A stretch of 64,000 bases of DNA from Escherichia coli. GTDB lineage: Bacteria > Pseudomonadota > Gammaproteobacteria > Enterobacterales > Enterobacteriaceae. Shown here in pieces: positions 57,281-63,488 of the stretch. The notes under the pieces are model-generated. The model saw only the letters and a list, made by a program, of their open reading frames with translations. It made no database searches and was not told the DNA's origin. The number at the start of each line of letters is the position of its first letter. The stretch's first letter is position 1. The stretch is taken from NCBI RefSeq assembly GCF_003991155.1, contig NZ_CP031293.1. One strand, written 5' to 3'. The translations under genes and the position numbers were made by a program.

Positions 57281-59929
57281 ATGAAACTGAAAAAACTCCC
57301 CGGGTTTAGTTTGGGACTTATTGCTTTGGCGGTGGGTAATGCATATGCTGAACAGTTTATTCAGTACGATGAATATAAACATGCTGTGGCAATAAAAGAT
57401 GGAGAAGTAAAAGATATTGATAATGCGCTAGTTATAACAACGGGTAATGGAAGTTACGGGGTATCTGTTGCAGGAGAGGGTAGCAATTTAACCATTAACA
57501 AAGGCGTCATTGTAACAACGGGTGGTTTATATCCTTCTGGCAATAGTCCTCTAAGCACAGTATATACAGCTAGCGCAGTCGTAAGTGAATATGGCGGTGC
57601 AGTTATTTTGCAGGGTAATAATACGATTGTCACAACGGGGGATTACTCAATTGGTTTGCTAAGTCAAACGAATGGAAACCTGAATACTGATACCATAATA
57701 AGAGTCAACACTGACGGTTCGGTTAACCCCCATTTATCTGACGAAGGTAATACTTTTATTGTTACTGCGGGTAATCACGCAGTCGGCGTTCTTGCTTGTG
57801 CATCTCCCGGAAGCGCGCGTGCGTGTGTATCTTCTCTTGATGAAGAAAGTACTGCCGATACAGGAAGTAATGAAAATAACGCCAAAGCAAAACTGGATAT
57901 GGCAAAAGGGGAGATAACAACCCACGGAACAGAAAGTTATGCCGCTTACGCTAATGGCACTGTCGTCAAGGCGGGTAGCAAGCTTGATTATACCAATGCC
58001 AGCGTTACATTAACCGATGTTGATATTACCACGCATGGGGACAATGCTCATGCCATCGCTGCTCGCCAGGGGACTGTTTCATTTAACCAGGGAGAAATTC
58101 ATACAACGGGTCCTGACGCCGCGATTGCTAAAATTTATAATGGCGGCAAGGTGACGCTGAAAAATACATCTGCAGTCGCGCATCAGGGGGCTGGAATTGT
58201 GCTGGAGTCTTCCATAAATGGTCAGGAAGCAACGGTAGATATTTTATCTGGTAGCTCACTACGGTCAGCAAATGAAATCCTCTACAATAAAAATGAGACG
58301 AGTAACGTGACCATTACGGATAGTGAGGTATCATCGGCTGCAGATGTTTTTATTAATAATATTAAAGGTCATTTGGCCATCGATGCATCTAATTCAAAAA
58401 TAACGGGTTCAGCCAATCTTTCAACAGATGATAGCACTCATACCTATCTGTCGCTTTCAGATAATAGTACCTGGGATATTAAAACTGACTCAACGGTGAG
58501 CAAGCTCACGGTTGACAATAGTACGGTCTATATTTCCCGGGCAGATGGAAAGGCTTTCGAACCAACAAGATTAACAATAACTGAAAATTACGTTGGTAAT
58601 AATGGCATATTGCATCTCAGAACTGAATTGGGTGATGATAATTCAGCTACGGATAAAGTCGTTATTAATGGAAATACCTCTGGAACAACCCGAGTTAAAG
58701 TTACCAATGCTGGCGGCAGCGGGGCTTACACGTTAAATGGGATAGAGATTATCAGCGTTGAGGGGGAATCAAATGGGGAATTTATTAAGGATTCGAGGAT
58801 TTTCGCCGGTGCCTACGAATATTCATTAACCCGAGGTAATACCGAAGCGACCAATAAAAACTGGTATCTGACTAACTTCCAGGCAACGAGCGGCGGTGAA
58901 ACAAACTCCGGAGGAAGTTCAGCGCCTACTGTTGCGCCTACCCCCGTTCTGCGCCCCGAAGCTGGAAGTTACGTCGCCAACCTGGCAGCCGCTAACACTC
59001 TTTTTGTTATGCGTCTGAACGATCGTGCAGGTGAAACGCGCTACATCGATCCTGTAACTGAACAGGAGCGTTCAAGCCGACTTTGGCTACGTCAAATTGG
59101 CGGGCATAATGCCTGGCGTGACAGCAACGGACAGTTGAGAACGACCTCGCATCGCTACGTCTCGCAGTTAGGGGCGGAGCTGTTAACCGGTGGTTTTACC
59201 GACAGTGACAGTTGGCGTTTGGGAGTGATGGCTGGTTATGCCCGCGACTACAACTCAACTCATTCCAGCGTGTCGGATTATCGTTCGAAAGGGAGTGTCA
59301 GAGGCTATAGCGCAGGGCTGTATGCCACCTGGTTTGCCGATGACATCAGTAAAAAAGGCGCATACATTGACGCCTGGGCGCAATATAGCTGGTTTAAAAA
59401 CTCGGTGAAAGGAGATGAATTAGCCTATGAATCCTATAGCGCGAAAGGTGCAACCGTCTCGCTGGAAGCGGGTTACGGTTTTGCCCTGAATAAATCCTTT
59501 GGTCTGGAAGCGGCGAAATATACGTGGATCTTCCAGCCACAGGCACAGGCTATCTGGATGGGCGTCGATCATAATGCGCACACGGAAGCCAATGGCTCAC
59601 GTATTGAGAATGACGCAAATAACAACTTCCAGACCCGACTTGGTTTCCGCACCTTTATTCGTACTCAGGAGAAAAACAGCGGTCCTCACGGTGACGACTT
59701 TGAACCTTTTGTTGAAATGAACTGGATCCATAACAGTAAAGATTTTGCTGTCTCAATGAATGGTGTGAAAGTCGAACAAGACGGGGCGCGTAATCTGGGG
59801 GAAATTAAACTTGGCGTAAATGGCAACCTGAATCCGGCGGCCAGTGTCTGGGGTAATGTGGGCGTGCAGCTGGGTGATAATGGCTACAATGACACCGCAG
59901 TGATGGTGGGCCTGAAATATAAGTTCTGA
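57281..59929 (+). CDS. ycgH: Autotransporter (type Va secretion), full-length
   Basis: Uninterrupted 882-aa ORF: signal peptide MKLKKLPGFSLGLIALAVGNAYA, Thr/Gly/Asn-rich beta-helical passenger, C-terminal beta-barrel ending ...VMVGLKYKF. Confidence 0.85.
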   Translation: MKLKKLPGFSLGLIALAVGNAYAEQFIQYDEYKHAVAIKDGEVKDIDNALVITTGNGSYGVSVAGEGSNLTINKGVIVTTGGLYPSGNSPLSTVYTASAVVSEYGGAVILQGNNTIVTTGDYSIGLLSQTNGNLNTDTIIRVNTDGSVNPHLSDEGNTFIVTAGNHAVGVLACASPGSARACVSSLDEESTADTGSNENNAKAKLDMAKGEITTHGTESYAAYANGTVVKAGSKLDYTNASVTLTDVDITTHGDNAHAIAARQGTVSFNQGEIHTTGPDAAIAKIYNGGKVTLKNTSAVAHQGAGIVLESSINGQEATVDILSGSSLRSANEILYNKNETSNVTITDSEVSSAADVFINNIKGHLAIDASNSKITGSANLSTDDSTHTYLSLSDNSTWDIKTDSTVSKLTVDNSTVYISRADGKAFEPTRLTITENYVGNNGILHLRTELGDDNSATDKVVINGNTSGTTRVKVTNAGGSGAYTLNGIEIISVEGESNGEFIKDSRIFAGAYEYSLTRGNTEATNKNWYLTNFQATSGGETNSGGSSAPTVAPTPVLRPEAGSYVANLAAANTLFVMRLNDRAGETRYIDPVTEQERSSRLWLRQIGGHNAWRDSNGQLRTTSHRYVSQLGAELLTGGFTDSDSWRLGVMAGYARDYNSTHSSVSDYRSKGSVRGYSAGLYATWFADDISKKGAYIDAWAQYSWFKNSVKGDELAYESYSAKGATVSLEAGYGFALNKSFGLEAAKYTWIFQPQAQAIWMGVDHNAHTEANGSRIENDANNNFQTRLGFRTFIRTQEKNSGPHGDDFEPFVEMNWIHNSKDFAVSMNGVKVEQDGARNLGEIKLGVNGNLNPAASVWGNVGVQLGDNGYNDTAVMVGLKYKF

Positions 59930-61131: not shown

Positions 61132-61537
61132 TGTCTTTGGTGAGCGGTGAACACAATACACTTGCGCTGTCTCTTCAGGAGCAATCCCCTGGTCTGGTGC
61201 CTGCGGGCTGATGTTGCAGCAGAGCTAAGGTCGCTTAGACGCTACTATCATTTATCCAATGGCATGGAATCGAAATTAGTCGATACCCGCAGTATATATC
61301 GTGAACTGGGCGCAACGCTGAGTTACAACATGCGTCTGGGGAACGGCATGGAAGTTGAGCCGTGGCTGAAGGTGGCTGTGCGCAAAGAATTTGTCGATGA
61401 TAACCGGGTGAAAGTGAATAATGACGGTAATTTTGTCAATAATTTGTCGGGCAGACGTGGAATATATCAGGCAGGTATTAAAGCCTCATTCAGCAGTTCG
61501 TTAAGCGGGCATCTCGGGGTGGGGTATAGTGTAGTGG

Positions 61538-62787
<1,250 letters not shown>

Positions 62788-63090
62788 TAGCCATGGTGCC
62801 GGTGTGGAATCCCCGTGGAACGCGGTGGCTGGTGCGAACTGGTCGTTCTGACCATCAACGATTAAACTGCGCTTCGGCGCAGTTTTCGTTTACAGGGTGT
62901 TAAAAGGGAAAATTCTGCGGCAAAAAAAGCCCGCCAGTTACGGCGGGAAACCTCATCCTATGGGAGAACAATGAATAATGAAATTGCGGGGTTATCATCT
63001 CCCAGTATACCAATACTAACAATAAGGTTATTTACTCAGCCAGGTATAAACATTTTGTTCTGTGTGGGGGGAACGGCATTAAGGTGTAAA

Positions 63091-63102
63091 GGGGGGGGGG
63101 GG
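63091..63102. repeat. Homopolymeric G12 tract
   Basis: Twelve consecutive G in the noncoding spacer between the IS-disrupted ycgI 3' end and the minE terminator. Confidence 0.8.
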
Positions 63103-63159
63103 AAGCAATGAGTAGCATCAGCAAGAATACTCGCCGCTCTTATCAAACGTGGATGAGGG

Positions 63160-63195
63160 GGATGAAAAACTCAAGGCAGAGATGACTCTGCCTTG
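63160..63195 (-). terminator. Rho-independent terminator of the minCDE operon
   Basis: Hairpin caaggcagag-atga-ctctgccttg about 30 nt downstream of the minE stop, followed on the minus strand by a U-rich run. Confidence 0.6.
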
Positions 63196-63221
63196 AAGAT
63201 AAATGCGCTTTTACAGCGGGC

Positions 63222-63488
63222 TTATTTCAGCTCTTCTGCTTCCGGCAAGGTCACGTTGAGCTCAAGAATAGAAATATCGCCATCTTTTTGCTCAAGCTGT
63301 ACGGTTACCATCTCAGGATCAATTTGTACGTATTTACAAATGACCTCAAGAATATCTTTACGCAACTGCGGCAGATAATGCGGTTCTGCATCGCTGCGAC
63401 GGCGTTCAGCAACAATAATCTGCAGCCGTTCTTTTGCAATGTTGGCCGTGTTTTTCTTCCGCGAGAGAAAGAAATCGAGTAATGCCAT
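63222..63488 (-). CDS. minE: Cell-division topological specificity factor MinE
   Basis: 88-aa [34 protein letters not shown]... Confidence 0.96.

Follow-up and report, generated by a model that had tools for sequence, protein, structure and literature searches.

How did a run of exactly 12 consecutive G residues come to lie downstream of minE in Escherichia coli, and does its length matter to the cell? The run is found near the end of a 64,000-nt stretch of DNA (NZ_CP031293.1; hereafter the window) and reads as C12 on the minE-sense strand. We put the probability at roughly 0.75 that a lineage-specific, neutral poly-G microsatellite occupies weakly constrained, unannotated DNA here, with G12 at the upper end of its length range. 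The tract is neither a contingency switch nor related to the neighbouring insertion sequence (IS), and it is no wholesale artefact. To our knowledge, this particular locus has no earlier description.

With respect to run length, G12 stands alone in the window. G/C runs of length 4, 5, and 6 occur 156, 29, and six times, respectively, runs of length 7 to 11 are absent, and the single run of length 12 is the only one longer than six. The rarity claimed for such a run from the sequence alone was borne out by chance expectations of 0.002–0.03 per window: dinucleotide shuffles yielded 0.03 per window (1 of 100 shuffles with any match), and a first-order Markov model yielded ~0.002 per window, or ~0.17 per 4.9-Mb genome. 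In E. coli, indel rates rise exponentially with homopolymer length, and G:C runs of 8 bp are already outliers in K-12 (PMC8510543). A scan for G-quadruplex motifs (four runs of at least three G, loops of 1–7 nt) returned none at the tract, even with loops of up to 12 nt; a match was obtained only with a 19-nt loop to the neighbouring G6 run, or as a two-tetrad motif. Single-strand DNA folding at the tract was likewise unremarkable (z = 0.2).

Measured in the direction of minE transcription, the tract follows the minE stop codon (63222) by 120 nt and the minE terminator by ~63 nt (Table 1). Genes in this part of the window follow the order ymgD, ymgG, ymgI, ymgJ, ycgI remnant, intergenic region, minE, minD, and minC, and the home of the tract is the 370 bp from the ycgI terminator to the minE terminator, which carry no annotation in any genome examined. 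At the tract itself, no annotated feature was found in MG1655 (curated RefSeq), RR1, FDAARGOS_1268, and 13 further genomes. The sequence-only reading had placed the run in noncoding DNA between the IS-disrupted 3' remnant of ycgI and the minE terminator, and both this placement and its coordinates proved correct. On the upstream side, the ycgI stop codon is located at 62849–62851 (+) and is followed by a terminator hairpin that we read directly from the sequence, as it was unlisted by the terminator scan. Two minus-strand terminators flank the tract, i.e., that of minE and a second, orphan terminator at which no annotated transcript ends.

Table 1. Features at and around the poly-G tract, in window coordinates
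Feature	Position	Strand	Description
IS3-family insertion sequence	61530..62787	-	1,258 bp, TG..CA ends, inside the ycgI remnant
Autotransporter/ycgI terminator hairpin	62866..62891	+	ACTGCGC-TTCG-GCGCAGT, then TTTCGTTT
Second (orphan) intrinsic terminator	62921..62947	-	CCCGCC-GTAACT-GGCGGG, then CTTTTTTT (T7); ~225 nt beyond the minE terminator
Mechanical 46-codon ORF	62971..63111	+	contains the tract, with G12 read as GGGG; no conserved gene
C-rich, G-poor 78-nt segment including the tract	63038..63115	-	highest (C-G)/length of any 78-nt window on either strand in 64 kb
Neighbouring G6 run	63066..63071	+	second indel site; GCGTGGG, one base shorter, in K-12-type genomes (alignments)
G12 homopolymer	63091..63102	+	longest allele of a polymorphic poly-G microsatellite; alleles G6-G12, conserved flanks
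minE (minCDE) intrinsic terminator	63163..63197	-	12-bp stem (63197-63170), then TTTTTC
minE coding sequence	63222..63488	-	nearest gene; tract downstream of its stop codon

For comparison of the region between strains, we aligned 15 fetched loci with the window and read the locus of the O2:H6 strain PG20180057 separately. Of the 16 E. coli sequences compared, 15 showed no change in the orphan terminator, and only PG20180057 had one stem change. In this strain (locus L011, positions ~270–300), the terminator has A8 rather than A7, and a C-to-T change produces an A-C mismatch in the minus-strand stem. A pattern scan of contigs with the orphan terminator (GCCCGCCAGTTACGGCGGG) returned four unrelated chance matches and no Escherichia; a variant of the PG20180057 type in the GTDB representative of E. 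coli could explain this absence. The ~100 bp upstream of the orphan terminator (block 62918–63018) scarcely vary between E. coli haplotypes; together with the terminator, they fold as a stem-loop of sRNA-like shape, with a fold z-score of only −1.1 and no Rfam match. Between 63020 and 63165, K-12-type and pure-G haplotypes differ at ~20 of 145 positions (~14%), compared with 95–99% identity of the adjacent 24.9 kb across most E. coli genomes. This pocket of deep haplotype divergence adjoins a variable autotransporter locus. Three other strains have an intact autotransporter in the ycgI position; that of 2013C-4282 and of AST85 is a 4.7-kb AIDA-repeat protein, and that of EC21Z-151 is YpjA/EhaD-like. 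In the ycgH position, the window holds an apparently intact 2,649-bp CDS (57281–59929, +; 'ECIAI39_1904 family autotransporter adhesin'), while ycgH of K-12 is a frameshifted pseudogene. Furthermore, a recurrent deletion variant (P0019; 98 aa, 53 contigs) corresponding to ~61400–63100 of the window joins the ycgI frame (...DDNRVKVNN) to the intergenic ORF (...EIAGLSSPS), apparently via a short shared AATAAT(G) motif, with loss of the ycgI 3' end and both terminators.

The sequence-only reading had proposed comparing tract length among related genomes, and this comparison revealed lengths from G6 to G12, with the flanking sequence otherwise conserved. The surrounding 271 nt are present in 5,415 of 5,426 complete E. 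coli genomes, and an uninterrupted G tract occupies this position in 739 of the 5,426. Synthetic queries of 81–84 nt, for which the 99% identity band is reached only by an exact match, gave 373 genomes with G6, 165 with G7, 27 with G8, and five with G9; spans of otherwise identical matches gave ten with G10, 24 with G11, and five with G12. No tract of G13 or longer was found at this position among the 5,426 genomes. The flanks were identical over 30 and 45 nt from G6 to G12. In the alignment, the alleles are represented by the window and FDAARGOS_1268 (G12), AR_0077 (G11), CREC-544 (G10), 2016C-3878 and 2013C-4282 (G9), SMS-3-5 and AST85 (G8), APEC E12049 (G7), and EC21Z-151 (G6). Other haplotypes carry G8AAAT (Rb-23 and AR_0086) or interrupted versions of the run, namely G5AG5 in PG20180057 and G5AGGTGG in K-12, O157:H7, and SCEC020001. 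Eight metagenome contigs comprised six with G6 and two with G7. Twelve matches to the segment downstream of minE were located on plasmid-labelled records, and the pure-G haplotype was present on three plasmid records. Taken together, the tract is an uninterrupted run outside any gene, its repeat number varies among strains, and its flanks are conserved, as is characteristic of microsatellites. This confirms a genuine, unusually long noncoding poly-G microsatellite, the length of which changes over evolutionary time.

The longest alleles belong almost exclusively to one clone. The IS in the ycgI remnant is flanked by a 3-bp target duplication (TAG at 61527–61529 and 62788–62790), and the same insertion, a clean clonal marker, was detected in 40 of the 5,426 complete genomes; G9 to G12 were found almost only in these 40 genomes. 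The window is identical to E. coli FDAARGOS_1268 (NZ_CP069501.1), a member of this IS-marked clone that includes ST457 isolates, over all stretches compared (271, 581, and 24,931 nt). The exact 271- and 581-nt sequences with G12 recur in four further independent assemblies, i.e., five in total. Within the clone (n = 40), the 581 nt around the tract differ only in length, by 0–3 bases, and fall into classes of 581 nt (n = 5), 580 nt (n = 23), 579 nt (n = 10), and 578 nt (n = 2); one genome per class was sequence-checked, and in seven 579-nt genomes the difference was placed within an 84-nt stretch that encloses the tract. No difference separates 24 of the clone genomes, with G10, G11, or G12 tracts, over the adjacent 24,931 nt (100% identity), and the remaining clone genomes show one or two events there. 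With 0–2 differences, the flanking 24.9 kb hold too few for a tree of the clone against which tract length could be set. Taken at face value, the tract would thus vary far more within the clone than any other site in this region, and such variability would fit the exponential rise of the indel rate with homopolymer length (PMC8510543). Regarding strain typing, MRY15-117, MRY15-131, AR13438, and CREC-544 were assigned to ST457 in their publications, and LWY24 (NZ_CP054556.1) was published as ST93 (PMC8025056). LWY24 has the IS insertion and the 24.9 kb at 100% identity in common with the published ST457 genomes, which reflects either inconsistent typing or labelling, or a region common to both STs.

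The IS itself had been considered as a possible source of the run, as part of an associated rearrangement. This did not hold, as the element is a clean 1,258-bp insertion with its TAG duplication and ends 303 bp away from the tract. An IS-linked origin was also rejected on two further observations: the DNA between IS and tract is collinear with K-12, and pure-G tracts exist without the element, with G11 in AR_0077 and G6 to G9 in IS-free genomes of other lineages. Judged from these comparisons, the tract is not a by-product of the IS insertion, and the IS provides context and a clonal marker with no mechanistic link.

A more serious concern was raised by the sequencing platforms. If the clone had one fixed true length, the spread from G9 to G12, including the G12 of the window, would consist of homopolymer miscalls. 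The platform is known for ten genomes only, and in these it coincides with length: the three documented G10 genomes (MRY15-117, MRY15-131, and CREC-544) are PacBio RSII assemblies, and the seven documented G11 genomes (LWY24, AR13438, the Hong Kong WWTP isolates, and KOr019) are Illumina+ONT hybrids from four laboratories. Furthermore, isolates from one study always share the same tract length, as a systematic error would predict. However, all 40 clone assemblies have G9 or longer, five independent assemblies agree on exactly G12, and these assemblies show no errors across 24.9 kb with A7, T7, and T8 runs in it. The lengths that distinguish lineages (G6 in 373, G7 in 165, and G8 in 27) were recorded in hundreds of genomes sequenced by many laboratories, and the rare G9 was called in both 2016C-3878 and AR Bank #0349, whose chromosome records differ by 14 bp and which look like two assemblies of one strain. 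We therefore consider a single true length in the clone an unlikely account of the spread. The sequence-only suspicion of an assembly or homopolymer artefact survives in part: with G9 or longer in each of 40 independent clone assemblies, the tract cannot be wholly artefactual, but its exact length may be off by one or two bases, and part of the G9 to G12 spread may be technical. As this spread is confounded with platform, recent hypermutability within the clone is not proven by it; the long tract in the clone and the length differences between lineages are secure.

If the length is real, it could still serve a purpose, and two such purposes were weighed, the first being phase variation. In the contingency loci of Haemophilus, Neisseria, and Campylobacter (Moxon and colleagues), poly-G/C tracts located inside genes for surface structures or restriction-modification, in their coding sequence or core promoter, turn expression on and off. 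The present tract resembles them in being poly-G in the G8 to G13 range with apparent single-base variation among close relatives, and changes in its length could shift the mechanical ORF that contains it into another frame or alter promoter activity. The ORF product would end in ...GGGGKQ with G12 or G9, in ...SNE with G11 or G8, and ~25 codons later with G10 or G7. Its start region is nearly invariant, with a GGAG-type ribosome-binding motif 4–5 nt before the ATG, K-12 encodes the same GGGG with other codons (GGG GGA GGT GGA), and the ORF was annotated here as C1358 in the original UTI89 record (PMC6206680). Against this, RefSeq leaves the ORF unannotated in 16 of 16 genomes examined, and its frame is broken differently in each major haplotype, by a 1-bp indel at the G6 site in K-12-type genomes, by an early 1-bp deletion in Rb-23/AR_0086-type genomes, and by an in-frame TAG in pure-G genomes; a small gene that keeps GGGG via synonymous codons in K-12 was rejected on these grounds. 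A search of 5.8 billion proteins returned only 29 rare E. coli/Shigella ORFs, a patchwork of different frames, and no relatives outside E. coli/Shigella. There was no NCBIfam match, and the one Pfam match (E = 0.07–0.16) was below the cut-off. YmgK and YmgL were also considered as candidates and discarded, their genes being located near icd. Regarding promoters, zero sigma-70 sites were predicted on either strand in 62750–63300, manual inspection at the tract found only poor hexamers, and an Rfam search at E ≤ 1 returned only sub-threshold noise. The neighbouring adhesin gene ends at 62851, ~200 bp upstream, is followed by its own terminator, and is an IS-disrupted pseudogene in this strain. 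No surface, host-interaction, or restriction-modification gene under control of the tract was identified. Unlike the repeats of contingency loci, the tract thus lies in unannotated DNA between terminators, outside any coding sequence or core promoter. The contingency-type tract suspected from sequence alone was not borne out, with no annotated gene, conserved ORF, or predicted promoter containing or adjoining the run, and we regard phase variation at this locus as highly improbable.

The other purpose concerns the RNA of the opposite strand. Read-through past the minE terminator would yield an unstructured, C-rich RNA with C12 in it, and this could be a Rho-loading (rut-like) or 3'-UTR element, with Rho or the orphan terminator halting transcription before it enters the autotransporter gene in antisense; tract length could tune the process. 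In Rho-dependent termination, rut sites downstream of leaky intrinsic terminators are established. The RNA predicted here is likewise C-rich, G-poor, unstructured, and untranslated over ~80 nt, and it has the composition expected of a rut site (~70–80 nt, high C, low G, little structure), a resemblance by composition alone. The C-over-G excess of 63115–63038 (−) is the highest in 64 kb, with a (C-G)/length of 0.33 against a background maximum of 0.32 (windows sampled every 10 nt), and 63132–63025 (−), with 41% C and 10–11.5% G, likewise ranks as extreme within the window. This bias stays at the 99.6–99.9th percentile in K-12, O157, SMS-3-5, EC21Z-151, and Rb-23, whatever the form of the tract, the predicted minimum-energy fold leaves the C run unpaired, and the segment is bracketed by the two minus-strand terminators. 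However, no other part of the intergenic region diverges as much between haplotypes, an argument against strong constraint, and the C excess of the segment may be nothing more than the mirror image of a decayed G-rich repeat. Searches of the literature for Rho or sRNA activity at minE/minCDE, and for bicyclomycin-sensitive termination downstream, turned up nothing relevant, and length-dependent tuning is pure conjecture. A rut-like role thus seems quite unlikely to us. Its most elaborate form, in which a conserved, unstructured C-rich RNA has the tract as its variable core and is either a Rho-loading site or part of an unannotated 3'-UTR-derived RNA ending at 62921–62947, and poly-C length tunes the escape of minCDE transcripts antisense to the adhesin locus, is a long shot. 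Nevertheless, a strand-biased, conserved segment together with two same-strand terminators hints that the DNA surrounding the tract may not be functionless.

The microsatellite reading accommodates these observations with a simple life cycle. Transcription of the autotransporter/ycgI gene and of minCDE converges on the site, and the run would change length there in one-base steps through slipped-strand mispairing at replication, a mechanism that we infer, with a rate expected to climb steeply with run length. In most carriers, the tract would persist in a short and stable form (G6 to G8); in the one clone that includes ST457 isolates, it would have expanded to about G11 to G12; elsewhere, it would have died by interruption, leaving G5AGGTGG in K-12 and G5AG5 in the O2:H6 strain. 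With neither a gene nor a promoter reading through it, the tract most likely changes length without phenotypic consequence, and it is on this absence of evidence for a function that neutrality is proposed.

Polymorphic intergenic mononucleotide simple-sequence repeats (SSRs) have reportedly been described in E. coli by Gur-Arie and co-workers in 2000 and, again reportedly, by Diamant and co-workers in 2004. The tract resembles such repeats in being an uninterrupted noncoding run of strain-variable length with conserved flanks, in its putative origin by slippage, in having no known function, and in its possible use as a typing marker, but at 12 G it is much longer than G/C runs normally are in E. 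coli. No new regulatory or phase-variation system is revealed, and the practical value of the finding is modest. For genome comparison, it calls for caution: this one site generates apparent indels among otherwise identical genomes of the ST457-containing clone, partly tracking the platform, and outbreak analyses based on SNPs or indels should mask or verify it. Provided that the lengths are real, the same site would be a fast-evolving marker with which a very uniform, globally spread, drug-resistant clone may be subdivided. For E. coli as a species, the allelic series would offer a clean natural example of the birth, expansion, and interruption of a microsatellite within one bacterial species.
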